Counted from the stretch's first letter, positions 1 to 48,307 are shown. The stretch: DNA of 48,307 nt from a virus (IMGVR_UViG_3300009506_000099:1-48307); one strand, 5' to 3'. The notes: generated by a model not told the origin, from the sequence alone. Translations and numbers: made by a program.

Positions 1-144
1 ACTGCGCCATCGACCAAGAGTGATACCTCTGGAGGTGGTACTCTCCTTTGTGTATCGAACTTCGCATCATCGAAGCCTCTCGTGGATAACGATACGCTTC
101 AGGTGACCTACACCAACACCACTCAGGATGATGGTGCTTAATCA
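1..144. repeat. Terminal overlap, copy A (identical to 48164..48307)
   Basis: Direct comparison: the first 144 nt repeat the last 144 nt exactly. This indicates a circular assembly overlap or a short direct terminal repeat. Confidence 0.9.
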
Positions 145-5892: not shown

Positions 5893-7971
5893 ATGGAGAA
5901 AGTTCTTGAGCAAGACGAGGTAAGGGCAGAGGTTGTTGATTCTCCCTCTGATGATGGAGGAAATACAGTCTCTGATCCTATCCTTTCTTCTATCCCATCA
6001 GCTTTCTGGGATAAGATTAAGGATAACCTTGCCTTATATCTGGAGGAGGAGCTTCAAGAAGCAGAGGCTGAGAGGGGAGACTTCATTGATAATCTGGCTA
6101 GGTGGAAGGTTGTATACGCAGCTCCTAAACCAGATAGGCCCAAGAACTTTCCATTCACCAATGCTTCTAACCTAACAATCCCAGTAGTGAAGGAGACCGT
6201 TAATACCCTGGCTGCTCAGATTGCTCAGGCGACAGGGACTGTCAGGCCGAGGTGGGTATTTGATGATCTCGCCCCTGAGTGGAATCCATTCACTAATGAA
6301 CTGCAAGAGTTCCTCGACATCTCATCTGATAGGGAGCTAGGTTTTGAGGAGAAGACCACCGAGGGAGTTATTGCGAAGACGAAGTATGGTACAGCTATAT
6401 ACGAAGTCGGTCATGAGGTGGTTGAGAGGAAGTACTATCGCTACTCAAATGATGGGAAGAAAGTATATCCTAAGACGGTCATCGTCAAGGATGGGCCATC
6501 ATTGAGGTTGATACCTCTTCAGAAGTTCTGGATTCGCTTTGTAGAGGAAGGGATTCAAGAGGCTGCTTGGGTAGCGAAAGAGCTTGACTTTACTGAGCAT
6601 GAGCTTCGTATCAGAGCGGCACAAGGGGAGTTCTTCAATGTCGAAGAGATCATCAAGGGAGGAGGGCAGACCTACACTGATGAGGCTACCGAGGAAGAAG
6701 AGGCTGTTGAGGATAAGGAGCCTATCAGGAGAACATTCAAATGCTTCGAGATTTGGTTATCCTATGATGTTGATGGTCTGGGGGATCTCGAGGAGATAAA
6801 GGTCTTGTTTCACCGTGAAACGAGAAAATTCCTCTATGCTCGTTTCAATCCCTATGATCATGGGCAGAGGCCATTTGTAAAGGATGGATTCTTCCCTGTT
6901 GATGGTAGGTTCTATGATATGGGCTTGTGTGAGATGCTGGAGCAGATTCAGGATGCTATCTCCCTCAAGCATAATCATAGGAATGATAATGAGACCTTGG
7001 CCAATATGAAGATGTTCCTCAAGAGGAAATTGGTTAAAGGTCTCCAGCCAGGAGATCCCCTCTATCCTGGGAAACAGATCGAGGTTACGGATATCTGGAA
7101 TGATATCAGAGAGTTCTCCCTTAGTGAGATCTATCCTTCGACTGTTCAGGAAGAGATGCTTCTTCGCCAGGTTGCGGAACGCTTGACTGGGACGAATGAA
7201 GGAGTTGCTGGAGCTGCGATGCCAGTCACTCGAACAGGGACTGGCGCACAACTCGCACTTCTTCAAGAGCAGTCAAAGAGGATTGATATTCCTGTTAAGG
7301 CCACAAGGAGAGCCATCAATGAGATTGGTTGGTTCTCCTTGATGATGTATATGCAATTTGGCACTAATGGGAAAGCTCTTGCATGGATGGGAGAGAAAGG
7401 TAGGATTGTCGAGAGTGTCTTCTCTCTTCCAAGGAGAGTTGTAGAACTGGGTCTCGGCATAAGAGCCAATGCTCCAACATCTATGCAGAATATGCAGGTT
7501 AGGAGAGAGAATGCTATCGCTATGTTCAATCTCCTTGTCCAGATTCACGAGAAGCTAGCACCTATGGCGCAGATGTTGGCTCCTCAACAGTTAGGAGAAT
7601 TCGTTCATGCTATGGTTCGGTCGGCTAAGCACTATGCTCAGAACGTACTGGAGACGTTTGACGAGCCTGATCCGGACTCTGTGCTTGCGGGTCTTAGTGC
7701 ACTGGAGAGGCTATTACCTAGACCGGAGGATCTCGGTGGATTGGAAGCTTTCGAAAGAGGAGCTGACTCAGCTGAAGTCATTGAAGGCATCAGAAGGTTG
7801 GAAAGTCTATATGCGGAAGCTGAAGGAGCTCTCGAAGGACGCAGAAGAGTATCTGATGAGCGCAGAAACGGAGAAGGAACTCTTTCGGCGTCAAGGAGTG
7901 GTGAGAGGAATTTCGGTAATCTTGAGCTTGGAGGAGAATCTTACCTTAAGTCAAGAGTACAGCCAGGATGA
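5893..7971 (+). CDS. Portal protein
   Basis: 692 aa, lying immediately upstream of the scaffold/decoration/capsid genes. Size and position are typical of portals. No catalytic motif is expected. Confidence 0.7.
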   Translation: MEKVLEQDEVRAEVVDSPSDDGGNTVSDPILSSIPSAFWDKIKDNLALYLEEELQEAEAERGDFIDNLARWKVVYAAPKPDRPKNFPFTNASNLTIPVVKETVNTLAAQIAQATGTVRPRWVFDDLAPEWNPFTNELQEFLDISSDRELGFEEKTTEGVIAKTKYGTAIYEVGHEVVERKYYRYSNDGKKVYPKTVIVKDGPSLRLIPLQKFWIRFVEEGIQEAAWVAKELDFTEHELRIRAAQGEFFNVEEIIKGGGQTYTDEATEEEEAVEDKEPIRRTFKCFEIWLSYDVDGLGDLEEIKVLFHRETRKFLYARFNPYDHGQRPFVKDGFFPVDGRFYDMGLCEMLEQIQDAISLKHNHRNDNETLANMKMFLKRKLVKGLQPGDPLYPGKQIEVTDIWNDIREFSLSEIYPSTVQEEMLLRQVAERLTGTNEGVAGAAMPVTRTGTGAQLALLQEQSKRIDIPVKATRRAINEIGWFSLMMYMQFGTNGKALAWMGEKGRIVESVFSLPRRVVELGLGIRANAPTSMQNMQVRRENAIAMFNLLVQIHEKLAPMAQMLAPQQLGEFVHAMVRSAKHYAQNVLETFDEPDPDSVLAGLSALERLLPRPEDLGGLEAFERGADSAEVIEGIRRLESLYAEAEGALEGRRRVSDERRNGEGTLSASRSGERNFGNLELGGESYLKSRVQPG
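6807..6821. promoter_or_regulatory. parS/OB-like palindrome, perfect: GTTTCAC-C-GTGAAAC
   Basis: Read directly from the sequence. It lies inside the portal CDS, encoding LFHRET. Confidence 0.6.
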
Positions 7972-8051
7972 GATTATGGAAATGAGATTGAGGGAAATCT
8001 TCGGAGGTACCGAGGATTTGTTGAGAGTCCTACCCCAATGAGGAGGGATAT

Positions 8052-8822
8052 ATGAACTGGTGGAAAACTATGCAGAGGTTTTCCTTTCGGGAAACAGATG
8101 ATGACCCTGGTCTCGAGGAGGATCCGACTCTAGATGAGGGTGATGATCCTGCGGATGGAGGAGGTGATCCAGCTCCAGCGGTTTCAGGGATTTCGAGAGA
8201 AGCTCTCCCCGAAGAGCTCAGGAATCTTCCTGAAGCTGAAGTCAAGTTCCATCTAAATCAGATGGTGTCAGGCTTCAGGAATCAACATTCTCAGGTTGGA
8301 AAGCTGAGAGAGGAGTTGGAAGAACTAAGGAGAAGATCTTATCAAGAGGAAGCTAAGCCGAAGGAACCAGATCGTCCTCTCGAGGAAGAGATTCTGGATG
8401 ATCCAGAAAATGCTGTGATGAGGGTCCTTGAGAAGAGAGGTCTTGTCCAACGATTTAACCGGCTTGAGCAGGATGTTGGAGAGAGTGCTATATCCATGGT
8501 AGCCTCTCAGATTCCTGACTTCAAGGAGTATGAAGGGGAGGTAAGAGAAATTCTAAAGCAGACTGGTGTCCCTATGACGGTCGATGCTATTCATGGAGCT
8601 CTCCAAATGGCAATAGGAAGGAAGTATCTATCCGATGGTGGGAGGGAGAGAAGGAAACAACATAAGGTTGACTCTCCCAAACCAGAGGCTCCAAAGAAGA
8701 CTAGTAAGTATGGAGAGTTGAGTGGCCTCGAAGCTGAGATCTTTCAGTCTTCTGGAATGTCAAGAGAAGAGTGGGAGAAGAACAAGAATCCTGATTTCGA
8801 TATTGAGGTGCCTACATCATGA
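8052..8822 (+). CDS. Scaffolding protein (putative)
   Basis: 256 aa between the portal and capsid genes, with an acidic N-terminus and a charged helical, coiled-coil-like composition. Confidence 0.55.
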   Translation: MNWWKTMQRFSFRETDDDPGLEEDPTLDEGDDPADGGGDPAPAVSGISREALPEELRNLPEAEVKFHLNQMVSGFRNQHSQVGKLREELEELRRRSYQEEAKPKEPDRPLEEEILDDPENAVMRVLEKRGLVQRFNRLEQDVGESAISMVASQIPDFKEYEGEVREILKQTGVPMTVDAIHGALQMAIGRKYLSDGGRERRKQHKVDSPKPEAPKKTSKYGELSGLEAEIFQSSGMSREEWEKNKNPDFDIEVPTS

Positions 8823-9788: not shown

Positions 9789-10715
9789 ATGCCTGTCGTA
9801 CGAGGACAGTGGGATGAGCTCCTGCGACCTGGAGCCAACAAGGTGTTCCTTGATGAATATCCTCAGCTTCCTTCTCTTTACACGAAGATTTTCTCTGTTG
9901 AGACTTCGGGTAAGAGCTTTGAGGATGACCTGGTAGCCACTGGTCTGCCGATTGCCGTGAGCAAGCCCGAAGGTGAGCCAATCGCCTTCGACCGACCGAA
10001 GTACCGTGGGAAGGTTCGGTACCTCCATGCCGGATATGGGCTTGGTTACGAGATCACTCGGGAGGCCGTTGAGGATGATGTCTATAAGGCTCTCAATAGT
10101 AAGGGAGCCGCAAACCTGGCTTGGTCCCTGAGGGAGGCTGAGGAGGTTACTGCTTGGAACATCATCAATCTCTCGTTCACCACAGTTCAGGCTTATGATG
10201 GGGTTGCTCTCTGCTACGATGCTCACCCCACTGTTACCAGCACGCTGGCTAATAGACCTGGAACTGATGAGGATCTCTCTACTGCGGCTCTGAAGGCTAG
10301 CATGGAGAGATGGTGGGCTCTCACTACTGATCGAGGCCTGAAGATCCAGATTCTTCCCACTATGCTCTTGGTGGGGAATGCGAACTTCTGGGCCGCTCAG
10401 GAGATTCTCCAGACTCAGTATATCACTGGTGCAGCCACTGGTGGTGAGGTTGATACCATCGTGTCTGAGAGGGTCCCGAATATGGTTGGGAAGCTCGGCC
10501 TGACTCCGATGCGTTCCAACTATATCACCGATGATGATGCCTGGTGGACTCTTGGAAGTAAGGGAGTTCACAAGCTCCGGTTCTATTGGAGGACCAAGCC
10601 TCAGAGTGTTGATGGTTTGGATAAGAGGCGTCAGATCTTCTGGTATGGGATCTTCGCTCGTTGGAGCGCTGGTGTCACTGACTGGAGAGGTATTGACGGC
10701 TCTACTGGAGCCTAA
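9789..10715 (+). CDS. Major capsid protein
   Basis: 308 aa with strong RBS AAAGGAGGAG upstream. It follows the portal, scaffold and decoration-like genes. Confidence 0.7.
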   Translation: MPVVRGQWDELLRPGANKVFLDEYPQLPSLYTKIFSVETSGKSFEDDLVATGLPIAVSKPEGEPIAFDRPKYRGKVRYLHAGYGLGYEITREAVEDDVYKALNSKGAANLAWSLREAEEVTAWNIINLSFTTVQAYDGVALCYDAHPTVTSTLANRPGTDEDLSTAALKASMERWWALTTDRGLKIQILPTMLLVGNANFWAAQEILQTQYITGAATGGEVDTIVSERVPNMVGKLGLTPMRSNYITDDDAWWTLGSKGVHKLRFYWRTKPQSVDGLDKRRQIFWYGIFARWSAGVTDWRGIDGSTGA

Positions 10716-18491: not shown

Positions 18492-18940
18492 TGCCATACT
18501 TTCCTCCTTCAGTAGATGATCTACCTGCAACTAGGTTCATCTTATTCTCGGATGCTAATAACAAAACGAGGATCATTGATGAGTCTGAGGTATTAAGGCA
18601 GGGGTTATTCTCTTTTACCGGAAAGTGGGAGAGTCCTACTCTCAATAGAAAGGATCCGACTAAGATCTATACCCTACGGAAGGTTATGATCTTATACGAA
18701 TCCAGTGCGAATACTACTATCTCTATATACCCTACCGGTGATGGAGGAGAGACCTATGGGAGAGTGAGAACATTAGATGTATTGGAGACATCTGGCAGTT
18801 CAATGAGGAGGGGAGTAGTAGGTTTCAATACAAGTGGTTTTGATCTTCGCTTCCGCATAGACCTAGATACCGATGAGGTGGTGACTATCTATGGATACAA
18901 AGGAACGGTTGTTGAGCGCTCTGACATCTTCATTTCCTGA
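18491..18940 (+). CDS. Hypothetical virion protein (149 aa)
   Basis: Start overlaps the upstream stop. Confidence 0.55.
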   Translation: MPYFPPSVDDLPATRFILFSDANNKTRIIDESEVLRQGLFSFTGKWESPTLNRKDPTKIYTLRKVMILYESSANTTISIYPTGDGGETYGRVRTLDVLETSGSSMRRGVVGFNTSGFDLRFRIDLDTDEVVTIYGYKGTVVERSDIFIS

Positions 18941-19655
18941 GATTGCTAGGGTTAAGTTTACTGATCGAGGGGGAGAGAGGGATGTCTCTGTGAGAGTCCT
19001 TCAAGGTTTAGGGACAGCCTCGAAGTATCTTACTCCTAATAAGATTCGAGAACTCTGGCTTGAGTACTCGAAGCATGATGTTCTCTTTTCAGATTATACA
19101 AGAGGGAAGGTTGAGCCCTTTATCACTTCTATCCTTAACCCAAGGAGCTTTTGGTTTGAGCTATTTGATAATGAGAGCTCGAGGCCTATAGGGATTGCCT
19201 CGATAACAGATATTATTCCTAAGTATGATGCAAAGGGGCATTTCGCTTTCTGGGATCGTATAGGGTCAGGAAGAGAGAAATTGATATGGACTCTCATGGA
19301 TATCTGCTTCCAGGAGTTCGACTTGCATCGGATGAGTGCAGAGATTCCTGCTTATCAAAGGGGAACGATTCGGTCGACTAAGAGATTGGGGTTCTCCCAG
19401 GAAGGTGAGAAGAAGGAGTCTATCTTCCATAAGGGAGCCTGGATGAATACTATCATATTTGGTATCACCGTAGATGAGTTCAAGGAGGTAACAAATGTCG
19501 GATACCCTATTCGGGGGAGAGAAGTCAGGAACTCCGATCGAGACCAGGAAGGCAACGAAGAACACAGCGAACTCGATCAATCAGCTCCTGATGAGGGGGA
19601 CAGGTCCATTAGCGAGCATGGAATCGCAGAGCTTGATGAACCTGCTGGGGTTTGA
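18891..19655 (+). CDS. GNAT-family N-acetyltransferase (RimJ/RimL-like)
   Basis: IGIASITDI..GHFAFWD..GREKLIWTLMDICFQEFDLHRMSAEIPAYQRGTIRSTKRLGFSQEG..NTIIFGI is a typical GNAT core. The ORF overlaps neighbours by 50 nt at its 5' end and 161 nt at its 3' end. Confidence 0.65.
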   Translation: MDTKERLLSALTSSFPEIARVKFTDRGGERDVSVRVLQGLGTASKYLTPNKIRELWLEYSKHDVLFSDYTRGKVEPFITSILNPRSFWFELFDNESSRPIGIASITDIIPKYDAKGHFAFWDRIGSGREKLIWTLMDICFQEFDLHRMSAEIPAYQRGTIRSTKRLGFSQEGEKKESIFHKGAWMNTIIFGITVDEFKEVTNVGYPIRGREVRNSDRDQEGNEEHSELDQSAPDEGDRSISEHGIAELDEPAGV

Positions 19656-27218: not shown

Positions 27219-27233
27219 GTTTAACCGTGAAAC
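27219..27233. promoter_or_regulatory. parS/OB-like site GTTTAAC-C-GTGAAAC
   Basis: It covers the polymerase stop codon (TFHG*). On the minus strand it ends 3 nt before the ATG of the RHH gene. Confidence 0.55.
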
Positions 27234-29557
27234 GTCTTCATGTTCTTCCAGTCCATACCTACCTTGATCTCAATAGGGATCTCAAGAACTTGAGTATCGA
27301 CTGGCATTTCTCTCACAGCGGCTTCCTGTATAATTTCTACCGTCGCATCGAGATCCTCCTCTCTTACTTGTAGTAGACATCCATCGTGCATATGGGCTAG
27401 GATATGGGCTTCCTCGCCATAGCCAGTTGCCTTATCAACATCAGCAATCGCTAGGGTAGTGAGATCACTCACTGAACTTTGAGGCTCGAAAGCAATACAA
27501 TCTCTATGTTCATGGGTGAATCTGTATATACGTCCGAGGATATTCCTCCGCCTACCCCAAGCGTTCTCCATATACCCATTGGAGAGGGCAGAGTTATATA
27601 CTATATCCCACCATGCTGGTAGTCCAGGATGTAGGTCTATGTAGGCTTGGTGAAGCTCTTTGGCCTCAGCCGCATTGATGCCAACTCCAGTATCCAAGTA
27701 GTTCTCATTAACTGTTCTCTTAAGGCCTAGCCATGATAGATAGTAATTCATAGCGTGGCGGCAGGTCTTGGCTAGGTATCTCTCCTCAACACTATCCTTC
27801 CCCTTCTCTAGAATCATTTCCATCAGCTCTTCATATGAGTAGCCGAATGGAAGCATCGAGGCTAGCTTTGTATGAATGTCAATACCTTCTGCCATATCAT
27901 CGAGAAGATCCCAGTCCCTCGTCTTGACTGCAACGTATCGAGCCTCGGCTTGTTCGTAGTCCCATCCAACAAAGACATATCCTGGGTCTGGGATACAGAT
28001 TTCTCTGGCATCATTAGGTACAGTTTGAAGCGGTAGACCTGGCCACCAGGGCTTATTAGCGGAGAACCTGCCGTTTCGAGTTCCATTAAGTCGCCAGTTA
28101 GTTCTAATACGTCCATCCCTATCAACGACTTTTTCTTTGGTGAGGTATCGGGATACAATATTACGGTTCTCCCTTGCCCGTATGATCTTCGTGAGGACAG
28201 TTTTCGCATCGCCTTCCTTTTCCGAAGCGGCTATGTCCATCAGATAGTCCTTGGCCGTAGTTCGCTTCTTGTATCTTTTCCCAAATCCAAGGAGATCGAA
28301 CACAATCTCTGCTGTCTGTTGGGAGGAACGGGGGTTAAAGGAGCGACCTACAATATCTTCAATCTCACTTTCAATCTCATCTGCTTTAACTGTATGCTTT
28401 ATATATAGTTCTTCGAGCTTATCTGTATCACACCTTATCCCCATCTTCGATGAGCGTATGAAGGTATCCATCACGCTCATCGTTATATCATATCCTCGTC
28501 GGCCACCAGCGATATTGAATTCAGTTGCCTCTATCTCCCCCATCACTTCGTAAGTAACAGCGGCATCCTTACCGGCATACTCCTGACCACGCTCATCTTG
28601 TCCTACGAACTCAAGCTCTTCCTTATAGTATGGTTCTCTCGTGAGGACAGATGACATATGGTTAAGCTTGTTGGACTTCAGGTCTCCCCAACAAGCCCAC
28701 CATGCTATCATCGTATCATGTTTGATATTAGATACCTTGATCCCAATACGATCGAAAGCAACTGTATCGAACAGAGCGTTCTGCATTACCTTTGGTACAT
28801 CAGAGGATAGAATCTCCTTGTATGCACGGTAGGCTTGCATTGAGTTGGGAGGTATTACTACCGCAAAATCAGGAGAATCGCTGAAACTAATATAAGCCAG
28901 AGAATTAGGATTATACCACTCAGAGTCAACAGAGAGCAGATCAGCCTTCTTATATCGTATGATGGCATCTTCTATCTCCTCCGGAGTTGGGTCAGTTACT
29001 ATTGTTCTTTGAGGGAGGATTATCTCAGGACTCTTACTCTCCTCCTTGACTCGCTTCCAATCCCATTCGAGGAAAGGAATCAGGTGATATTGGCGAGAGT
29101 GGAGGATGTAAGCTGGGTGGATGATAGGGATTACCTTCAATCCTTTCACCAGGGTAGACTCAAGGATTGAGCCTCGCCAGTTAAGGATTCCCCAATTCTG
29201 GGTGAGCGCCCAGAGAGCATAGTTCCCCAGGGCAACGACTACGTTGGGTTGAACTTCTTTAATCTCCTCAAGGACTTCAAGGATTCCTTCCATGTATTCA
29301 GAGGAAGGAGTGTTATCTTTAAGGAAGAAGAACTTATGTTTATCCTCACCACCAGGAGGGTAGTACTTGTATGTGTTAGAGATATAGATATCCCCTCGAT
29401 CGAGACCGACAGCAGAGAGGAGTTTATCCAGTTCTTTCCCAGAAGTTCCAACGAAAGGAGTGCGGGCCCAGACCTCTTCCTTCCCAGGACTCTCACCTAG
29501 AACAAAGATGTCCGCGTCCTCCGGCCCGATGGCAGGGACTCGGATGTCACCCAGCAT
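27221..29557 (-). CDS. UDG-like (family 4) domain fused to family A DNA polymerase with 3'-5' exonuclease
   Basis: UDG motifs: GESPGKEE..PFVGTSG and IIHPAYIL. Exo I DSE, Exo II NALFD, Exo III YAGKD. Pol motif A DYEQAEARY, motif B RYLAKTCRHAMNY, GRRR, motif C HMHDG. Confidence 0.9.
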   Translation of the reverse strand: MLGDIRVPAIGPEDADIFVLGESPGKEEVWARTPFVGTSGKELDKLLSAVGLDRGDIYISNTYKYYPPGGEDKHKFFFLKDNTPSSEYMEGILEVLEEIKEVQPNVVVALGNYALWALTQNWGILNWRGSILESTLVKGLKVIPIIHPAYILHSRQYHLIPFLEWDWKRVKEESKSPEIILPQRTIVTDPTPEEIEDAIIRYKKADLLSVDSEWYNPNSLAYISFSDSPDFAVVIPPNSMQAYRAYKEILSSDVPKVMQNALFDTVAFDRIGIKVSNIKHDTMIAWWACWGDLKSNKLNHMSSVLTREPYYKEELEFVGQDERGQEYAGKDAAVTYEVMGEIEATEFNIAGGRRGYDITMSVMDTFIRSSKMGIRCDTDKLEELYIKHTVKADEIESEIEDIVGRSFNPRSSQQTAEIVFDLLGFGKRYKKRTTAKDYLMDIAASEKEGDAKTVLTKIIRARENRNIVSRYLTKEKVVDRDGRIRTNWRLNGTRNGRFSANKPWWPGLPLQTVPNDAREICIPDPGYVFVGWDYEQAEARYVAVKTRDWDLLDDMAEGIDIHTKLASMLPFGYSYEELMEMILEKGKDSVEERYLAKTCRHAMNYYLSWLGLKRTVNENYLDTGVGINAAEAKELHQAYIDLHPGLPAWWDIVYNSALSNGYMENAWGRRRNILGRIYRFTHEHRDCIAFEPQSSVSDLTTLAIADVDKATGYGEEAHILAHMHDGCLLQVREEDLDATVEIIQEAAVREMPVDTQVLEIPIEIKVGMDWKNMKTFHG

Positions 29558-29817: not shown

Positions 29818-29992
29818 TATCAGTCTCTCTCCTTACTACGACTAGAAGTTCATATCCTAAGCAGACCATCATGGCTGCTCCGTCATTCATCTTCTTAATA
29901 TTATCACAGTCTAAGTCATTAAGGTAGACTGTTACCTTATTCTTTATCGTCCCTTTTGGATGGTCCAGTTTAACTTGCATAAACATGCTCAC
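29792..29992 (-). CDS. Hypothetical small protein (66 aa or shorter)
   Basis: ORF overlaps both neighbours. Internal Met starts are possible. Confidence 0.3.
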   Translation of the reverse strand: MSMFMQVKLDHPKGTIKNKVTVYLNDLDCDNIKKMNDGAAMMVCLGYELLVVVRRETDNERENSTD

Positions 29993-31304
29993 TTAGGATA
30001 AGATTACCAAGCTCCGCTCTTTCTTTATCAAGCTCGTATCCCACATACTCACACTGAAGATCAAGTGCCCCCAAGCCTGTTGATCCAACACCTGCAAAGG
30101 GATCGAGGATTCTTCCACCACCAAGGGAGATCATAGAGATTACTTCCTTACAGAGATCCCTTGGCATCTGCATAGCGAAGTCTCTCTCACTCGGATTCAG
30201 GGTGTCATAGATAAATATGTCCTGCTTTCCTTGTTTGAGAAGAACAGCGTCTCCCTTCGAAGCAAAGACCATAGCCTCATAGGAGACAATCATGCCTTTC
30301 CTTGGATCGCCTATTATCCCTTGTGTCTTGTTGGGCTTCACCCAGATAGGAGGAACGAGGGTTACATAAGAGAACCCTACATCCTCGAGCCAGAAGGCTA
30401 GGCCCATTGAGTCATATAGAAGCTTCTGATCAATCGAGGTCCTTCCTTCTAGCTTCTTATACAACTCTCTTTGCATATTGTTGTATGTTATCTTCCTCAC
30501 ATCGAACCAGGCTACCAGCCAACTGTCATCCTTGAGGACTCTATAAGCTTCTCGAATAACGTCTTGAACCAGTCCATTAATGTACCCCTCTTCATCCTCA
30601 TATACTTTCTTTCCTCCCTTCAATTCAAAGTCTACACCGAATGGGAAGTTAGTGACGACAGCATCGAAGCTCTCATCTTCCTCTTCCTTGATAAGATCTC
30701 TGGCATCCCCAGCCTTGATAATAGCAGGGATGGAAGGGGCCTTACCTTTCTTCTTCCTTTCTATCTCCTTCTTCCGCTTCGATATCTTCTTATCAGTATC
30801 CCTTTTACTGAGAGCACCACGGAGAGTCTTCTCTTGTTTCAGGGATGGATCTTCTTTCATTGCCTTCGAGAGATCCACGCTTTTCGATACAGTCGCCTTG
30901 CTCTTTCCTACCATTGCCGCAGTCTTTGCCATGCTCCATTCTGGATCCTCCTCCTGTTTGAGGTCATGGATCTCAGCGATGGCGGCAGCCTCTTCATACC
31001 ACTCAAGCTGTTTCCGTCTGATGTTCTCCTCGAGTTCTATTTCCTTCTGTTCGATAACAGATAGCTCCTCTTTGAACTTGGCATCAATGTTCTTCCAACC
31101 AAGTTTGAGGGCTCCCATTATCCGAGTGAAGCCAGCGACAAGTTCGATCTCTCCATCTTCATTCCTGTTAACTACGATGGTGGAGAGCTGGCCGAACTTC
31201 TTGAGAGACTCAGCCATTGTATTAATGTCTTCGTCTGTCAACTCTTTCCTCTGTCGAGGCTTAATCTTTATGTCCTTGATACTTACATTAGGCATCCTCT
31301 TCAC
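29970..31304 (-). CDS. ParB/Srx N-domain + ParB-type HTH fused to an N6/N4 DNA methyltransferase
   Basis: ParB box: IKIKPRQRKEL..FGQLSTIVV..ELVAGFTRIMGA. HTH: SMAKTAAMVGKSKATVSKSV. Basic linker: KKISKRKKEIERKKKGK. MTase motif IV-like VVTNFPFG lies upstream of motif I DPFAGVGSTG (beta-type order). Confidence 0.85.
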   Translation of the reverse strand: MKRMPNVSIKDIKIKPRQRKELTDEDINTMAESLKKFGQLSTIVVNRNEDGEIELVAGFTRIMGALKLGWKNIDAKFKEELSVIEQKEIELEENIRRKQLEWYEEAAAIAEIHDLKQEEDPEWSMAKTAAMVGKSKATVSKSVDLSKAMKEDPSLKQEKTLRGALSKRDTDKKISKRKKEIERKKKGKAPSIPAIIKAGDARDLIKEEEDESFDAVVTNFPFGVDFELKGGKKVYEDEEGYINGLVQDVIREAYRVLKDDSWLVAWFDVRKITYNNMQRELYKKLEGRTSIDQKLLYDSMGLAFWLEDVGFSYVTLVPPIWVKPNKTQGIIGDPRKGMIVSYEAMVFASKGDAVLLKQGKQDIFIYDTLNPSERDFAMQMPRDLCKEVISMISLGGGRILDPFAGVGSTGLGALDLQCEYVGYELDKERAELGNLILSEHVYAS

Positions 31305-35524: not shown

Positions 35525-35553
35525 AATATAACAGAATATATCCCCGGTGTCAA
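35525..35553 (-). promoter_or_regulatory. Sigma70-type promoter: TTGACA, 17-nt spacer, TGtTATATT
   Basis: The minus strand reads TTGACAccggggatatattctgtTATATT, with a consensus -35 and an extended -10. Confidence 0.7.
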
Positions 35554-35575: not shown

Positions 35576-35590
35576 GTTTCACGGTGAAAC
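35576..35590. promoter_or_regulatory. parS/OB-like palindrome, perfect: GTTTCAC-G-GTGAAAC
   Basis: Its last base is the first base of the sulfotransferase-like gene's stop codon, and it lies 22 nt from the -35 of the promoter at 35525..35553. Confidence 0.6.
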
Positions 35591-36135
35591 TAGTAGGAGT
35601 ATCCAAGCTCCTTAATCTCCTCATGGAAGTAATAGCTTATCCATTGTCTTGATCCTTCAGAGTGTATCGACCTATAATCTTTTCCCTTCCTTTTCCTCCC
35701 TCCAACATGAGCAAGAGAAACATCCGGCAACTCGAACAGAGAGAGAAGAGTGTTGAGATCATCCTCGAGATTCTCAAACCTAATGCAGAGAGTCTCGGGA
35801 ACCTCTTTCCTGAAGTACCATAGTCGCTGAGGTACACAGTAGCTTCGTCTCCTTCTTATCTGTCTAAGAACCCATTGCTCCACCCATACATCAGTTAGGG
35901 AATTGTCTGTGTGATTGTTGGTCTTACTCATATACCAGGAGGCAAATGCATCCCAGTGGTTACGGACTACACAGAAGTAGCGGAGTCCTTCGAAGAGTTT
36001 ATCATACTTGATAGGCCCATAGTGATGACCTCTTAGATTACGGAAACCAATCTCCTTAAGTGCATCACTCACTGATCGTGAGGCAGTATGAGGATGAGCG
36101 AGATAAGCTAGGTTTACTCCTCGGTGGACGTACAT
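35590..36135 (-). CDS. Sulfotransferase-like protein with a degenerate PAPS loop (paralog of the next gene)
   Basis: YLAHPHTASRSV aligns with FLAHPKTGTQTV of the paralog (Lys to His, Gly to Ala). VVRNHWDAFASWY resembles the RNPxDxxxS 3'-PB motif. Confidence 0.5.
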   Translation of the reverse strand: MYVHRGVNLAYLAHPHTASRSVSDALKEIGFRNLRGHHYGPIKYDKLFEGLRYFCVVRNHWDAFASWYMSKTNNHTDNSLTDVWVEQWVLRQIRRRRSYCVPQRLWYFRKEVPETLCIRFENLEDDLNTLLSLFELPDVSLAHVGGRKRKGKDYRSIHSEGSRQWISYYFHEEIKELGYSY

Positions 36136-36764
36136 TCTATTTTCTCCACTACTTCATACCCGAGGCTTCTGATCTCCTCACCGTATATCCTAGCCATATA
36201 GTTCAACCCATTCTGTTTGAAGCAAGCGAGGGGTTCATCCCTTCTCTTATAAGGGTGACGACCTTTGTGGGGGAAGCGAGGTATGTCTTCCTTCTTATAT
36301 CCATAAGATAGGAGAACATCTCTCATTTCTTCTTCTAGATTCTCTAGCTTTACTATAGAGTCGAGACAGCCTGGGAGAGGATCATAGAGGAAGCGGAAGA
36401 TTCTGCCGATAGCTGAGTACGGATACCATTGTGGACTCTTACTGAAGATCTCCATGATACAGCGACCATCTATCCCGTCCCAATAGGCTTCCTGTAGTCT
36501 CTTCCCTGACCACCAGGTTACCACAAGATCGTAAGGATTCCTTACTGTACAGAACCAAGAGAACTCATCCTTCTCCTTAAGCGAGAGACAGTTCCACTTT
36601 GAAATCCAAGGCCCCATTAGGTTGGAGCATAAGTTATTAGGCCCATCATGGTGTCCGCCTACTGGCTTGAAGCCTAGATTTTCTGTGAGGATAGAGGAGA
36701 CTGTCTGTGTACCTGTCTTAGGATGAGCGAGGAAGCCCACCTTTCTTTGGAAGTCAATGTACAT
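36114..36764 (-). CDS. PAPS-dependent sulfotransferase-like protein
   Basis: HPKTGTQT resembles the 5'-PSB loop PKSGTT. TVRNPYDLVVTWW resembles the 3'-PB motif RNPKDxxVS. A conserved GGHH is a possible catalytic His. Confidence 0.6.
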   Translation of the reverse strand: MYIDFQRKVGFLAHPKTGTQTVSSILTENLGFKPVGGHHDGPNNLCSNLMGPWISKWNCLSLKEKDEFSWFCTVRNPYDLVVTWWSGKRLQEAYWDGIDGRCIMEIFSKSPQWYPYSAIGRIFRFLYDPLPGCLDSIVKLENLEEEMRDVLLSYGYKKEDIPRFPHKGRHPYKRRDEPLACFKQNGLNYMARIYGEEIRSLGYEVVEKIECTSTEE

Positions 36765-37012
36765 TACTTATTCCTTACCTTCCTGATGATGGGCCAAGCT
36801 ACCCAATGGAAGATGAGCCAGCATAGGACAAGTACGATCCCTGTGCCAAAGGTCTCTGGGTTACCCCAACTCTGATCGATAACTACTTGAGATAGAGGAT
36901 CAAGGTAGTTCTTTCCTATAATCTTCTCATCAAGGAGAGAAAAGAACTCAGCAGATAGCACGGCGACAAAAGCACCGAACCAGAACTTACGACTAAAGAG
37001 AGAAGGTTTCAT
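36764..37012 (-). CDS. Small membrane protein (82 aa)
   Basis: Two hydrophobic helices, FWFGAFVAVLSAEFF and GIVLVLCWLIFHWVAWPII. Confidence 0.5.
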   Translation of the reverse strand: MKPSLFSRKFWFGAFVAVLSAEFFSLLDEKIIGKNYLDPLSQVVIDQSWGNPETFGTGIVLVLCWLIFHWVAWPIIRKVRNK

Positions 37013-37437
37013 CCTTTACCTCCCAGGATGGCGCGAGCCTTGTTTTGTACCGACTGTGTGACCTTCCAGATGTTTGGTGATGCGGTCTTTCCGGTAGACC
37101 ATAGTCCCAGCACCCCAAGCAGTTCGGCAATCAGATCCTCCATCGCCTCCCGCTCCCGGCTCGGTGGGGTGAGGATAGTAACCTGAATCCATTCCTCTGT
37201 ATCGTCTGGTTCGAGAGTCATCCCCACGATCCAGTTAGGGTGCGCCATCAGGGTGTTCAGCCAATGTGAGGGCACCCATACCTCCATCCCCACCGGTTCC
37301 CCCTCGGGCTGGAGGAGGGTGTCAGCGATCCGTCTCATCCTGGCCGCGTTCACACACTCATAACCCACCTGTTCATCTATACCATCGGCCCAATTGCGAA
37401 GAAATTCAGCGTCTTCCACCCGCTCTCTCTCACTCAT
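37009..37437 (-). CDS. Hypothetical protein (142 aa), GC-rich island
   Basis: Long ORF. Its stop overlaps the start of the membrane-protein gene. Confidence 0.55.
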   Translation of the reverse strand: MSERERVEDAEFLRNWADGIDEQVGYECVNAARMRRIADTLLQPEGEPVGMEVWVPSHWLNTLMAHPNWIVGMTLEPDDTEEWIQVTILTPPSREREAMEDLIAELLGVLGLWSTGKTASPNIWKVTQSVQNKARAILGGKG

Positions 37438-37633
37438 CGCTCTCGCGCTCCACGATACGGTCCATCACTACATGGACGGTCTCGTTCAAAAGGTATTCCT
37501 CCCCGGCGACCACGATAACCGACCCCGCCTTCCTTGGGTCCGCTTCTACTACCGCATCTACCTTGCTGATGGGGAAGTAGATGGCTCTGGTGGTGCCTTC
37601 TATCGACAGTTGCACCCACCCCTTTCTACTCAT
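37430..37633 (-). CDS. Hypothetical protein (67 aa), GC-rich island
   Basis: Its ATG overlaps the stop of the upstream 59-aa ORF (ATGAGTAG). Confidence 0.5.
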   Translation of the reverse strand: MSRKGWVQLSIEGTTRAIYFPISKVDAVVEADPRKAGSVIVVAGEEYLLNETVHVVMDRIVERESDE

Positions 37634-37805
37634 CGCTCTCCTCCAGGGCTTGGATGGCGATCAATTGGGATTGAACTGACCAGAACAGTTCCAACGCCTC
37701 CCGCAGCTTCGCGTTCTCCTCCCGCAGCCAGTCGATCTCGGCTAGGAGGGTGGCGATGTCTGAGTCCCATGACCGCCGCTCCCGAATCTCTTCGATGTCA
37801 CTCAT
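37626..37805 (-). CDS. Small coiled-coil protein (59 aa), absent from the ORF track
   Basis: MSDIEEIRERRSWDSDIATLLAEIDWLREENAKLREALE... Both ends have ATGA-type overlaps. Confidence 0.45.
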   Translation of the reverse strand: MSDIEEIRERRSWDSDIATLLAEIDWLREENAKLREALELFWSVQSQLIAIQALEESDE

Positions 37806-38103
37806 CCTGTACCTCCAGGATCTGTTGCAGGGCGGCGGCGATTTGGTACAATTCCTTTGCCCCCTGGGGGAACTTGCTGGCCCGGATAGAATCGGCTCTT
37901 CTTCTTAGTGCCTTCACCATCCAAGGCTCAATCGGCCCGACGCCTTCGTCTGTGAAGGGGAGAATGGCGACCTTGGTTCGACCGATTATGTCATCCGGGT
38001 TCGCCCTCCAGGGGAGATAGCCATTCAGGGACACTCGCCCAGACACAGGATTGCCGAAGTCCATCGCCACTACGGCCCCCTTCATTACCTTCGGCTCACT
38101 CAT
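37798..38103 (-). CDS. Hypothetical protein (101 aa), GC-rich island
   Basis: The track ORF extends to 38355. An internal ATG at 38103 forms an ATGA overlap with the stop of the 81-aa ORF, which fits the coupling pattern of this island. Confidence 0.5.
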   Translation of the reverse strand: MSEPKVMKGAVVAMDFGNPVSGRVSLNGYLPWRANPDDIIGRTKVAILPFTDEGVGPIEPWMVKALRRRADSIRASKFPQGAKELYQIAAALQQILEVQDE

Positions 38104-38345
38104 CTCGCCCTCCAAAGAAGTAATTGCGTCAGTACCGGCGTCGCCAAATCCATCCAGCCATCGGTAGGCCAGCGGTCGGGAGGATTCCCCCGGTGGTCCG
38201 CATACCGCTCCCGGTAGTACCACATCGGGAGGAGCCCCCAGCCGGCCCAGGGGTCCACATGGAAGGCTCCCCACTGTATGGCACCATGGACGGTCCAGGT
38301 CAGCGGATGCCAGATGTACTTCGGGAGCCAACGGGGGCGATTCAT
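38100..38345 (-). CDS. Trp-rich hypothetical protein (81 aa)
   Basis: Trp-rich (about 12 Trp in 81 residues). ATGA-coupled to the downstream gene. Confidence 0.45.
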   Translation of the reverse strand: MNRPRWLPKYIWHPLTWTVHGAIQWGAFHVDPWAGWGLLPMWYYRERYADHRGNPPDRWPTDGWMDLATPVLTQLLLWRAR

Positions 38346-38351
38346 CTCTCC

Positions 38352-38573
38352 TCACTTTTCCTCCGGAAGTGGGAGATCCGCGAGATCAATGACGGCTCTG
38401 CTTAGTTCATCCTCGAAGACCGCACCGACTTCGTGTTCCTCGTCTATGATCTCATAGAGTTTATCGAAGGCTGTTCGTGCCAGGAAATCATACAGGTTGT
38501 AGACATCTCCTCTCTTCCTAGCTTCTTCCTTCAGTGCCTCGGAGATCTTATCCATCATCTCTCGATCTTTCAT
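38352..38573 (-). CDS. Hypothetical acidic protein (73 aa)
   Basis: The track start is 38597. Met9 at 38573 makes an ATGA overlap with the upstream stop. Confidence 0.5.
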   Translation of the reverse strand: MKDREMMDKISEALKEEARKRGDVYNLYDFLARTAFDKLYEIIDEEHEVGAVFEDELSRAVIDLADLPLPEEK

Positions 38574-38788
38574 CGTTGACCTCCTCTCCTCTTCCACTCC
38601 TCATCACAGTAGACACACCTATCGTTGTTCCGAAAGACCTCATCCAGATCACACACCTCCCCACAGTGATAGCACTCATCGAACTGCGGCTCACAGTCCT
38701 CCCAGGCCCACCGCTCTTGAGTAGTCTTACCTCCATGAGGATTGGCATCGAGGTATAGTTTATCTGTCATTTTCAGTCTCCTTATCAC
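38570..38788 (-). CDS. Zinc-ribbon small protein (72 aa)
   Basis: CYHCGEVC...CVYC, that is two CxxC pairs. Confidence 0.5.
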   Translation of the reverse strand: MIRRLKMTDKLYLDANPHGGKTTQERWAWEDCEPQFDECYHCGEVCDLDEVFRNNDRCVYCDEEWKRRGGQR

Positions 38789-44976: not shown

Positions 44977-45498
44977 ATGAGTCGAGATCTCTTACCCACG
45001 CTCTCTCCAGAGAAGAGCTATCAACCTGAGAAGTGGACATCTCTTCACAGATATATGGTTCTCCTTGAGATAGCTGGGAAGAAACCTAAAGAGATCGCAG
45101 AGATCGTAGATATGTCGATCTCTAGGGTTTCAGTTATCCTCGGTGACCGCCGAGCAGAGATCGAACGGCTCTCCCTTGCAGAAAAACTCTCCGATCAGAT
45201 TACAGATATCCATACCAAGCTTCAACTCTATGCTCACGAGGCTCTCGAAACTGTTATTGATGAGATGAGAGCCCCGGAGAATAAGAGTGAACTTAGAGTG
45301 AAGGTAGGTTTCGGGATCCTCGATAGGGCAGGCTTTACCCCTGTTCAGAAGCAGGTAGTAGCTCATGCAGAGATTCCTGTAGAGATTGCTGAGAGAATGG
45401 AGATTGTCGCCTCAGAACTCAAGGAGAATAGGCCAGTTTATGAGAAGGTAAAGCCGAAGATTGACGAAGCTGAGTTCGAGGTTATGGAAGATGACTGA
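44977..45498 (+). CDS. HTH protein, small terminase subunit candidate
   Basis: 173 aa directly upstream of, and overlapping, the large terminase gene. KKPKEIAEIVDMSISRVSVILGD resembles a sigma-region-4/LuxR-type HTH. Confidence 0.5.
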   Translation: MSRDLLPTLSPEKSYQPEKWTSLHRYMVLLEIAGKKPKEIAEIVDMSISRVSVILGDRRAEIERLSLAEKLSDQITDIHTKLQLYAHEALETVIDEMRAPENKSELRVKVGFGILDRAGFTPVQKQVVAHAEIPVEIAERMEIVASELKENRPVYEKVKPKIDEAEFEVMEDD

Positions 45499-47200
45499 TC
45501 TCGACCTTGGTATGCTCGTCGAGGAGGTCTTTGAGCCCTCAGAGATTGAGAATCTACCATCTCTAAAGGGTTTGAAGAAGGCTCACGGCGATCTTACTGA
45601 GTCTCTTAGGCAGGGAATCCGCTCTCAGGCCCTCAAAAGTACCTATTTCCTAGCAAAAGTAGTCCTTGGATACACGAAACTCAACATCCGAGTCCACCTT
45701 CCGATGTGTGAGTTCATAGATCAGACAGAAGCCTACACTCGTAGGATGGCTCTGATGCCTAGGACTCACTTCAAGACGACTATTTGGACCATAGCTCACT
45801 CAATTAAGCTCGTCTGTAACAATCCGAATATAAGAATCCTCATGATAGCGGACACTGGGACTAACGCCAGCCGCTTTATGCAGGAAATCCAGCAGCACTT
45901 CGAGTTCAATGAAGTATTTCGATGGGTTTTCCAGGAGATTATCCCAGATAACTTCACAAAAACGCGTTGGAGCCAATATGAGATGGTCGTTAAGAGGTCT
46001 CTCATTGCCCGTGAGCCGACGATCGACGCTATTGGCGCACTGGGAGGCTCAGAATCTAGGCACTACGATTGGATCAAGGCGGATGACCTCGTTACTGAGA
46101 AGTGTATTCGCTCGGATGTGGAGATGGATAAGGTAATCCATTGGTCAGGGGGCCTCGAGAGCCTTCTCATCAATCAAAAAGGGGATCATATTGACTTTGT
46201 GGGGTCAAGAAAGAAGAAGGGAGATCTGTACGAGCACCAGGAGAAGATGTATAGCCTAGGGATGGAGAAAGTCGACATCGGACCCCATGCTTATGCGATA
46301 GGAGAGATGGCCGTCTTCACCCGTTCAGCGATTGAAGAAGGAGAAGTTATATTTCCTGAGCAGATCTCCCTTCGTTTCCTCATTCGTCTCCGTAAGACTG
46401 ATCCTCAACGCTACCACGCTCAGTATGCTAACTCCCCCAAAGGTACAGGTCTCAATACTTTCGATGTAAGGGATCTACGTTACTATACCTTTGATGGAGC
46501 TGGGAATATAATCTGTGTCCACAATAAAGATGTACTCCTCGAGGTATCACCATGGAGCCTTGACCGTATAGTTCTCTTCGATCCCTCGGTTGCCGAGAAG
46601 CAGGCTAACTCTCAACAGGCGATCATTGTAGTTGCTAAAGGCTCAGGGCCTTTTCGTATAGTGCTCGAGACTCACATTGGTCACTTTCTTCCAGATGAGG
46701 CCATTAAGCTACTTTTCGATATGGATAAGAAGTGGCATCCGTCAGTCGTCTCTATTGAGAAGAGAGGATTTCAGGGTTGGGTTAAGTATGGTCTCTCGGA
46801 GATTGCAGACCTTAAGGGAATCCCTTATCCTCCTATAGTCGAGTGGCCCCTAGAGGGAGCCTCGAACTCTCAGTGGAGTAAGGTCGAGCACATCAGAGCT
46901 ATGCAACCTATGATTAGGGCCAATTACCTTTGGGTACATGAGACTCAAGTGGATCTTATTGATCTCGTTGAATTCTATCCAAATGTGAGGTGGGATGATG
47001 GACTTGATGCTCTAGCCCAGGCGATGGACTACTGGCCTATGATGATGGATGAGCAAGAGGTTCAAGCTAAGAAGAGAGCTGAGGACGAGTTCCTCATGAA
47101 GAGTTTCCTCGGCTATTCTCCTCCTGAGGATAGCTGGGATGAGAGGGAGTTCCTCCGCTCATTCGATTATACAGGTTATAATCAGATATATGAAGCATAG
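45491..47200 (+). CDS. terL: Terminase large subunit
   Basis: MPRTHFKTT is Walker A-like, as in Terminase_6. DWIKADDL is Walker B-like. IVLFDPSVAEK opens an RNaseH-like nuclease domain. The track start is TTG 45461; ATG 45491 gives an ATGACTGA overlap with the upstream stop. Confidence 0.85.
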   Translation: MTDLDLGMLVEEVFEPSEIENLPSLKGLKKAHGDLTESLRQGIRSQALKSTYFLAKVVLGYTKLNIRVHLPMCEFIDQTEAYTRRMALMPRTHFKTTIWTIAHSIKLVCNNPNIRILMIADTGTNASRFMQEIQQHFEFNEVFRWVFQEIIPDNFTKTRWSQYEMVVKRSLIAREPTIDAIGALGGSESRHYDWIKADDLVTEKCIRSDVEMDKVIHWSGGLESLLINQKGDHIDFVGSRKKKGDLYEHQEKMYSLGMEKVDIGPHAYAIGEMAVFTRSAIEEGEVIFPEQISLRFLIRLRKTDPQRYHAQYANSPKGTGLNTFDVRDLRYYTFDGAGNIICVHNKDVLLEVSPWSLDRIVLFDPSVAEKQANSQQAIIVVAKGSGPFRIVLETHIGHFLPDEAIKLLFDMDKKWHPSVVSIEKRGFQGWVKYGLSEIADLKGIPYPPIVEWPLEGASNSQWSKVEHIRAMQPMIRANYLWVHETQVDLIDLVEFYPNVRWDDGLDALAQAMDYWPMMMDEQEVQAKKRAEDEFLMKSFLGYSPPEDSWDEREFLRSFDYTGYNQIYEA

Positions 47201-47695: not shown

Positions 47696-48304
47696 ATGTA
47701 CGAAGAGTTTGATCCTAGAGTTCCGCCTGGCGTGGACTCAATGGAGATGCTCCATCAGATGGCGAAGGACAATAGAGGTAAAGGTCCTTTCCGTCTGAGA
47801 GGGGCATTTCAGTTCGATCTGTATAGGCATGGATATCACATTGATAGGTGGTATCAGCCTAATATCGTTACTCAAGAAGGCCTAGAGTATGCTCTAGGTG
47901 TTGCTCTTATCAGTACCACTCAGATCACTGCTTGGTATATCCTCTTGAAGGATAATACCAATGATCCAGTTGATGGTACTGAGACATACGCCACACCTCT
48001 GTTCGTTGAAATCGCTGATTATGATGAGACGATCAGAGAAGCTTGGACTGGTGGTGCTATCTCTGGTACCACAACGAAGAGTGTGTCGAACTCTGGGACT
48101 CCTGCCGAGTTCACGATTAGCACGACTGTAACGATCTATGGTGCTGGACTTGTTGGTGGTGGGACTGCGCCATCGACCAAGAGTGATACCTCTGGAGGTG
48201 GTACTCTCCTTTGTGTATCGAACTTCGCATCATCGAAGCCTCTCGTGGATAACGATACGCTTCAGGTGACCTACACCAACACCACTCAGGATGATGGTGC
48301 TTAA
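47696..48304 (+). CDS. Hypothetical structural protein (202 aa)
   Basis: AAGGAGGAAAGG RBS upstream. Its 3' end is duplicated at 1..141 because of the terminal overlap. Confidence 0.6.
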   Translation: MYEEFDPRVPPGVDSMEMLHQMAKDNRGKGPFRLRGAFQFDLYRHGYHIDRWYQPNIVTQEGLEYALGVALISTTQITAWYILLKDNTNDPVDGTETYATPLFVEIADYDETIREAWTGGAISGTTTKSVSNSGTPAEFTISTTVTIYGAGLVGGGTAPSTKSDTSGGGTLLCVSNFASSKPLVDNDTLQVTYTNTTQDDGA

Positions 48305-48307
48305 TCA
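48164..48307. repeat. Terminal overlap, copy B (identical to 1..144)
   Basis: Same 144-nt string as the window start. It contains the 3' end and stop codon of CDS 47696..48304. Confidence 0.9.

Follow-up and report, generated by a model that had tools for sequence, protein, structure and literature searches.

Two overlapping minus-strand genes in a viral DNA of 48,307 nucleotides (IMGVR_UViG_3300009506_000099:1-48307; hereafter the window, meaning the whole stretch that was analysed) encode proteins that are likely to be O-sulfotransferases dependent on 3'-phosphoadenosine 5'-phosphosulfate (PAPS) supplied by the host. One of them, paralog B (35590..36135, 181 amino acids), is a typical member of a large phage family, carrying a histidine variant of the 5'-phosphosulfate-binding (PSB) loop, and would be the resident enzyme of its lineage; the other, paralog A (36114..36764, 216 amino acids), looks to be a divergent, lineage-specific mini-sulfotransferase and would be an extra copy. 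The pair had been picked out in an earlier reading of the DNA by eye (the sequence-only reading), and we recover both open reading frames (ORFs) at the same positions, together with exact translations of the HPKTGTQT and RNPYDLVVT motifs of paralog A and the HPHTASRS motif of paralog B. The two products are tandem paralogs, as had been proposed, sharing 25% identity over 203 columns (BLASTP, E 1e-13), and both match a hidden Markov model of the family, at 137.6 bits for paralog A and 194.6 bits for paralog B.

The homology of both proteins to PAPS-dependent sulfotransferases is established at the profile level only. The sequence-only reading had suggested a search against the Sulfotransfer_1, Sulfotransfer_2 and Sulfotransfer_3 models as a check; single sequences stay below the gathering score in such a search, but family-level scans and profiles return sulfotransferases. 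Scanned alone, paralog A has no Pfam match and paralog B aligns to Sulfotransfer_1 at E 0.027 (14.3 bits, with a cut-off of 22), and the single-sequence matches to phrog_3347 are weak (E 0.087 for paralog A and 0.0035 for paralog B). A phmmer search of the PDB with paralog A was uninformative, as were single-sequence searches of NCBIfam and of PADLOC, where no match was found. Paralog A is a singleton in a database of 5.8 billion proteins, and for paralog B four orthologs were retrieved, 33-49% identical to it. When these sequences were combined into a profile, 109 proteins were recovered, comprising about 100 of ~180 amino acids that lack a Pfam domain and a tail that carries PF03567 (Sulfotransfer_2), and an exhaustive profile search retrieves 1,177 cluster representatives at E<=1e-10 (clusters at 50% identity). 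The ~180-residue family is large, was seen in phage contigs only and has no Pfam or NCBIfam model of its own.

Scans at the level of the family consistently return sulfotransferases. When members were compared individually with Pfam at E<=0.1, Sulfotransfer_1 was matched by 34 of 99 and Sulfotransfer_2 by 17 of 99; besides Sulfotransfer_3, no further family was matched by more than one member, and the Stf0 profile PF09037 was matched by none. The sole PHROG found was phrog_3347, labelled 'Galactose-3-O-sulfotransferase', which 42 of the 99 members match at E<=1e-3 (best 5.6e-14). The 36 best matches of the family profile among PDB sequences are all sulfotransferases (best E 1.6e-5), with an alignment that extends from the 3'-phosphate-binding (3'-PB) block, itself aligned to the motif of SULT1A3, through a YE(D/N)L strand. 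Comparison of the core family with its PF03567-bearing relatives by hhalign gave a probability of 99.75% (E 3e-27), the 180 aligned columns bringing every motif into register. Structural prediction agrees with this placement: AlphaFold models of paralogs A and B (predicted local distance difference test, pLDDT, 84.9 and 95.6, respectively) both show a strand at residues 9-12 followed by a helix at residues 19-28, and the top 50 Foldseek matches in the PDB for each of the two models are PAPS sulfotransferases. Matches among viral structures are to annotated phage and giant-virus sulfotransferases, with template modeling (TM) scores of up to 0.69. The sulfotransferase-like character that the sequence-only reading had assigned to the pair is thus upheld, in that a 5'-PSB element, a candidate catalytic histidine, a 3'-PB element and the predicted fold are present in both products.

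To describe the family's motifs, we computed conservation over 102 aligned members and counted a column as conserved when at least 80% of members agreed, which gave 23 columns. In the numbering of paralog B, the conserved positions are M1, Y2, the loop L12-A-H-P-R-T-A-S19, L26, H37-H38, R58, N59, D62, S66 and W67, followed by R119-(Y/F)-E121, R149, E173 and Y179. H38 and R58 are invariant (100%), H37 and S66 are each found in 96% of members, and H37, D62, S66 and E121 all reach at least 95%; within the PSB loop consensus, L-A-H-P-R-T-A-S, Arg is present in 91 of 102 members and Ala in 94 of 102. The loop reads HPKTGTQT in paralog A (36702..36725, minus strand as for all motifs here) and HPHTASRS in paralog B (36073..36096). 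The His-His pair is His38-His39 in paralog A (36648..36653) and His37-His38 in paralog B (36022..36027), and by analogy with known enzymes we infer that it provides the catalytic base. The 3'-PB motif is RNHWDAFAS in paralog B (35938..35964), in which R58, D62 and S66 form an exact RxxxDxxxS, and RNPYDLVVT in paralog A (36516..36542), in which R75, D79 and T83 follow the same pattern with a Ser-to-Thr replacement found in three other members. The His-His pair precedes the 3'-PB arginine by 20 residues in paralog B, a spacing that we take to be similar to the distance between the catalytic histidine and the 3'-PB arginine in estrogen sulfotransferase, and by about 36 residues in paralog A, where a 16-residue insertion specific to that protein (CSNLMGPWISKWNCLS, 36582..36629), modelled at low pLDDT, lies between the two. 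RXXXDXXXS has been described as the 3'-phosphate motif of PF00685 (PMC11625862). An HPRTAS loop, an HH pair, RNxxDxxxSW and RYExL together make a sequence-derived annotation rule for the family.

These comparisons reverse the relationship that had been proposed between the two copies. The sequence-only reading described the PAPS loop of paralog B as degenerate; set against the family consensus HPRTAS, however, paralog B deviates at one of the 23 conserved columns (Arg16 to His), whereas paralog A deviates at four (Lys16, Gly18, Thr19 and Thr83, all conservative). Paralog B does lack the loop Lys and Gly seen in paralog A, but the family never had them, and the Ala18 and Ser19 of paralog B are the family consensus. 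At the basic position of the loop, the Lys16 of paralog A falls within the Lys/Arg definition and the His16 of paralog B outside it. The histidine is shared by the paralog B orthologs P0003-P0005, which are 42-50% identical to paralog B, and recurs in P0094 and P0101, two unrelated members; because it is both kept in orthologs and recurrent elsewhere, the Arg-to-His change fits a tolerated or selected variant and not decay. Loss of catalytic or cofactor residues without conserved replacements, the criterion for a pseudoenzyme, is not what paralog B displays. The PRTAS loop itself has precedent in an active enzyme, as Mycobacterium tuberculosis Stf0 carries Arg and Ala on its PSB loop (PMC11625862). 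Paralog B is, judging from these residues, probably active despite its substitution.

Gene order in related phages likewise marks paralog B as the older copy. In contigs L017 and L018/L019, an ortholog of paralog B is followed by a Pam3_gp32-like gene, a small ORF and a PD-(D/E)XK nuclease gene, with neighbours 67-76% identical to those of the window, and no A-type gene is present in L017-L019. The B ortholog of L017 has a Zn-ribbon ORF some 200 nucleotides upstream of it; in the window, the homologous ORF (38570..38788, E 7e-11) is 2.4 kb upstream of paralog B, an arrangement which indicates that paralog A and the intervening ORFs are specific to this phage. Because its relatives carry paralog B alone, we read paralog B as the ancestral resident gene of the lineage and paralog A as a lineage-specific addition. 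The orthologs of paralog B are 42-45% identical, as compared to 67-76% for the flanking Pam3_gp32-like and PD-(D/E)XK genes of L017-L019; such unusually fast divergence would fit a role in interaction with the host without identifying that role. The block of about 1.8 kb that, together with paralog A, separates paralog B from the Zn-ribbon ORF (36764..38570, minus strand) comprises the gene for a small hydrophobic protein, mem82, and ORFs of 142, 67, 59, 185 and 81 amino acids, for which Pfam, PHROG and other scans yielded no family matches.

The sequence assigns paralog B a longer N-terminus than the public gene call does. That call (P0002, 160 amino acids) begins at an internal GTG (Val22) and would remove both the N-terminal strand and the PSB loop. 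An ATG at 36135 instead overlaps the 3' end of paralog A by 22 nucleotides and is preceded at 8 nucleotides by a GGAG Shine-Dalgarno sequence (36144..36147, minus strand) that lies within the end of paralog A. Since the MY..LAHP N-terminus is conserved in all paralog B orthologs and the GGAG site is in place, the comparison confirms the ATG at 36135 as the correct start, and the layout of the two genes marks them as translationally coupled. We also considered whether the two might be chance ORFs, and rejected this in view of the number of homologs (about 100), the confidence of the predicted folds and the coupling of the starts.

The enzyme that we envisage would be built on a compact core: a 5'-phosphosulfate strand-loop-helix (HPRTAS in the family, HPKTGT in paralog A, HPHTAS in paralog B), the invariant His-His pair, which appears to occupy the place of the catalytic base of cytosolic sulfotransferases, the RxxxDxxxS/T motif, a strand reading (R/K)-(Y/F/L)-E-x-L and a basic residue late in the sequence. 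Such a core would bind PAPS made by the host, the catalytic histidine would deprotonate an acceptor hydroxyl, and the leaving 3'-phosphoadenosine 5'-phosphate (PAP) would be stabilised by the loop Lys, Arg or His. On the simplest reading, paralog A would be a second enzyme whose acceptor specificity is altered by the insertion beside the catalytic histidine, a segment that suggests a changed acceptor site. Hydropathy analysis found no hydrophobic segment in paralog A or B, and both are therefore presumably soluble, cytoplasmic proteins. With respect to the donor, the ends of the window (1..144 and 48164..48307) overlap exactly over 144 bp, indicating a complete genome of about 48.16 kb, either closed into a circle or with redundant termini. 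This genome, part of which was scanned by phmmer against the PDB only, yielded no PAPS-pathway enzyme, glycosyltransferase or pyrimidine hydroxymethylase; the completeness of the genome and the lack of a PAPS-pathway gene point to host PAPS as the donor.

As to what is sulfated, no partner gene is conserved alongside the family, and the acceptor is therefore probably a host-derived molecule. Our tentative choice is a hydroxyl on a sugar, whether that sugar is part of a glycan, a glycolipid or a metabolite, a possibility that we would put well short of an expectation. Carbohydrate is weakly favoured, since all relatives with an annotation act on carbohydrates or glycolipids. Carbohydrate sulfotransferases are the nearest families to have been annotated, glycosyltransferases accompany the distant relative in phage phiRSL1, and two GT41 genes lie near a family member in contig L013. 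Several points weigh against the enzymatic assignment and its extension to an acceptor. Neither paralog reaches a Pfam gathering score alone; the structural similarity is modest, with TM-scores of 0.3-0.55 and best E-values of 3.9e-4 and 3.5e-3 in the Foldseek search of the PDB; and the search for PAPS genes relied, for part of the genome, on phmmer comparison with the PDB only. To our knowledge, no sulfotransferase has a histidine at the basic position of the PSB loop, so that paralog B could be weakened or inactive. The acceptor guess, moreover, comes from distant relatives, and the neighbourhoods consist mostly of nucleic-acid metabolism and structural genes with no conserved partner. The modest TM-scores would be expected of a core-only version of the sulfotransferase fold.

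Two alternatives question whether one or both proteins transfer sulfate at all. The sequence-only reading had raised an active/degenerate heterodimer, and a version in which paralog A is active and paralog B a catalytically dead structural or regulatory partner could draw on the His that paralog B carries where known sulfotransferases have Lys or Arg, on the overlap and translational coupling of the two genes, and on the recurrence of tandem pairs in another phage lineage (L002/L003, L007 and L020/L021). Those other pairs, however, carry the canonical PRTAS in both copies, so that recurrent retention of two copies does not require a dead partner. Paralog B also stands alone, without an A-type gene, in related phages; it matches 22 of the 23 conserved columns, every other catalytic position included; its histidine is retained by orthologs that are 42-50% identical to it and arises independently in P0094 and P0101; and it is paralog A, not paralog B, that is the singleton. 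An obligatory pairing of this kind is accordingly quite improbable. Still harder to credit is a sulfotransferase fold that has left sulfate transfer behind, serving as a binder of PAP, PAPS or coenzyme A, as a sponge or regulator, or as some other enzyme of 3'-phosphorylated nucleotides. The sub-threshold scores against curated models and the modest structural similarity would suit such a protein, as would a length about 100 residues below that of characterised sulfotransferases, which leaves little room for an acceptor site. Yet about 100 members keep, with little or no variation, a His-His pair for which nucleotide binding alone offers no role, and the loop, base and 3'-PB residues are all kept under the wide divergence of the family (mean column identity 15%); we consider loss of transferase function very improbable.

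A third alternative concerns the target: a nucleotide or nucleic acid (a DNA base or sugar, an RNA end, or a defence signalling nucleotide), modified for anti-defence purposes or as genome modification, with sulfate acting as a mask or a leaving group. In its favour, the window genes sit beside Pam3_gp32, PD-(D/E)XK, AAA_24, methylase and PolA genes, the member in L012 directly follows ThyX, those in L013/L015 are flanked by an RNA ligase and an AAA_33 P-loop kinase, and the phiRSL1 relative is two genes from a thymidylate-synthase-family gene with an adenosine 5'-phosphosulfate (APS) kinase nearby; paralog B, in addition, diverges faster than its neighbours, as arms-race genes often do. Accessory genes, however, are common in early and replication regions whatever their function, and the family also occurs in head-gene modules (L006). 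The complete genome yielded no pyrimidine hydroxymethylase, DNA glycosyltransferase or similar enzyme, there were no PADLOC matches, the isoelectric points of the family are not consistently basic (median 6.7), and our literature search found no paper connecting sulfotransferases with the hypermodification of phage DNA. A nucleic-acid target is thus an unlikely alternative to the sugar acceptor. Were the family to act on the end of an RNA or DNA, on a modified base or on a signalling nucleotide of immunity, it would represent a new counter-defence chemistry of phages, with the His-loop paralog B and the Lys-loop paralog A as two specificities in one phage; we hold this to be a long shot. A sugar of the host envelope as acceptor would instead link the family to receptor remodelling.

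Comparison with characterised enzymes places the presumed host-PAPS O-sulfotransferases of the window at the small end of a familiar fold. The carbohydrate sulfotransferases of PF03567 are homologous to the family over its whole length, with the PSB loop, His, VRNxxDxxxS and LRYExL blocks aligned, but are proteins of 250-350 amino acids with a PKxGGT loop, whereas the family proteins have about 180 residues and a PRTAS loop (Arg/Ala), are predicted to be soluble, are encoded by phages and, in their core members, lack a precomputed Pfam domain. Cytosolic sulfotransferases (SULT1A3, 1CJM; SULT2A1, 1OV4; estrogen sulfotransferase, 1AQU) are the best PDB matches by both sequence and fold, and share with paralog B the same R-to-S spacing in the 3'-PB motif (RNxKDxxVS as compared to RNHWDAFAS), followed by a YE(D/N)(L/M) strand. 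SULTs, which have substrate-gating loops, are about 290 residues long, and the family is shorter, matching them at TM 0.3-0.55. Stf0, the trehalose 2-sulfotransferase of M. tuberculosis (PDB 1TEX), is larger than the family proteins, is likewise cytoplasmic and acts on a sugar hydroxyl. It resembles the family in its Arg and Ala PSB loop and its reduced central sheet (PMC11625862), but with regard to the Stf0 profile family loop composition is all that the members share, and the lists of PDB sequence and fold matches do not include Stf0.

Small proteins of this fold, of an uncharacterised kind, are already known in phages, whose sulfotransferases have a role that 'remains unclear' (PMC10580990). 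Proteins of the cultured marine phages P-SSM7 (E3SP23, 196 amino acids), SIO1 (Gp5.1, 188 amino acids) and ACG-2014f are similar in size and fold to paralog B (TM 0.60-0.69), but are only 15-18% identical, and none was matched by tblastn from paralogs A and B or two other members. The P-SSM7 protein is annotated as a 'sulfotransferase family protein', the ACG-2014f and phiRSL1 proteins are annotated as well, and SIO1 Gp5.1 has the same fold and no annotation. What is new is a large subfamily known from metagenomes only and without a curated model, the His variant of its PSB loop, and the finding that the 'textbook-looking' copy is the derived one. The expectation in the sequence-only reading that sulfotransferases are uncommon in phages therefore holds for cultured phages, given that megablast and tblastn searches of 50,697 GenBank phage records with the region, paralogs A and B, P0035 and P0109 returned nothing, but not for metagenomic ones, where the 1,177 cluster representatives are found, and small phage sulfotransferase-like proteins had already been annotated. 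A scan for the loop pattern in 185,579 species genomes (GTDB) gave 19 pattern matches and no confirmed relative, and offered no lead to a prophage or a host. Since the family is unnamed by Pfam and NCBIfam and absent from GenBank phages, its members pass as hypothetical proteins in viromes. Paralog B offers a small, well-folding test protein (pLDDT 95.6) for an acceptor search, and the Arg-to-His and Lys variants of the PSB loop within one genome provide a ready comparison of the role of that residue.

Terminase, portal and capsid genes lie near the family gene in the recovered contexts, all of which are phage-like. The family gene is found at varying positions, and its neighbours are conserved in close relatives only; an all-vs-all BLASTP comparison of neighbours at 13 loci found no conserved partner gene, only synteny at the level of lineages. 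When 97 ORFs neighbouring the family gene at 12 loci were surveyed with Pfam, GT41 occurred three times, PD-(D/E)XK, RNA ligase, AAA_33, radical SAM and AAA_24 twice each, and ThyX, ribonucleotide reductase and dUTPase once each; no sulfate-activation gene is among the 25 families listed of the 41 matched. The sulfotransferase gene of L012 lies directly after ThyX, and that of L006 is in a head-gene module. In L013 and L015 the order is GT41, GT41, RNA ligase, unknown, sulfotransferase, unknown and AAA_33 kinase, with GT41 upstream in both contigs and two GT41 genes confirmed in L013, within 6 kb. The RNA ligase and AAA_33 P-loop kinase that flank the sulfotransferase here (L013 25..7326 and L015 424..7493, on contigs of 93-177 kb) resemble an RNA-repair pair.

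The most elaborate neighbourhood is that of the distant relative in phiRSL1 (L022, NC_010811.2, 160456..171088), where ORF230-238 form a cassette that includes ORF232, a sulfotransferase-like protein of 285 amino acids that matches paralog B structurally but is longer. The cassette runs from a thymidylate-synthase-family gene through a hypothetical gene, ORF232 and three glycosyltransferases, annotated as glucosyl-hydroxymethylcytosine (glucosyl-HMC) transferases, and its remainder comprises a nucleotidyl transferase, an NDP-sugar (nucleoside diphosphate sugar) pyrophosphorylase-like gene and an APS kinase. Its gene content shows that some phages bring their own PAPS supply for glycan- or DNA-type modification, and the product of the cassette may be a glycan or a DNA hypermodification that carries sulfate; we found no literature on it. 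The example is not transferable to the window phage, which has no such cassette of glycosyltransferases and APS kinase.

In the window itself, the plus strand carries the terminase (45461..47200), SU10-type portal (5893..7971) and capsid (9789..10715) genes together with a long tail arm, and no tRNA genes were found. A minus-strand arm extends from about 44.4 to 25.9 kb, in which some 20 small ORFs without homologs are followed by mem82, paralog A and paralog B and, downstream, by a Pam3_gp32-like gene, a PD-(D/E)XK nuclease, AAA_24, an ExoX-like ORF, a ParB-methylase fusion, a uracil-DNA glycosylase (UDG)-PolA fusion and DUF3987; this position, after the small ORFs and before the replication module, makes the early-arm placement in the sequence-only reading a reasonable one. 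The small membrane protein gene said to abut paralog A is mem82 (36764..37012, minus strand, 82 amino acids), the stop codon of which overlaps the start of paralog A (TAATG). By 19-residue Kyte-Doolittle means, its product has one clearly transmembrane-like segment near the C-terminus (2.17) and a weaker hydrophobic segment at the N-terminus (about 1.5); the gene is not conserved in the related phages L017-L019, so that a functional link with the pair is conjectural. In the 93-nucleotide gap between the paralog B stop and the Pam3_gp32-like gene lies a sigma-70-like promoter match (35525..35553, minus strand; TTGACA-17-TATATT with an extended -10 TG, 11/12), a match to the consensus only. This candidate promoter may be the start of the replication-gene transcription unit, and would then put the sulfotransferase pair at the end of an upstream early unit.

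Several further ORFs deserve mention. A 778-residue ORF of the window (27221..29557, minus strand) joins an N-terminal uracil-DNA-glycosylase-superfamily domain to a 3'-5' exonuclease and DNA polymerase A; a UDG-fused subfamily of phage PolA is described in a 2025 bioRxiv preprint (10.1101/2025.03.26.645540). A 444-residue ORF (29970..31304, minus strand) fuses a ParB N-terminal domain to an N6/N4 DNA methylase, and in the tail-gene arm a 254-residue ORF (18891..19655, plus strand) is weakly similar to RimJ-type GNAT N-acetyltransferases (PDB 3IGR, E 5e-4, with a concatenated query). Among the family loci, one 29-kb phage contig (L001) has two recorded members, P0027 and P0037, and also contains a long ORF (5958..8228, plus strand) with Hint and pretoxin-HINT matches that is possibly intein-containing or polymorphic-toxin-like.

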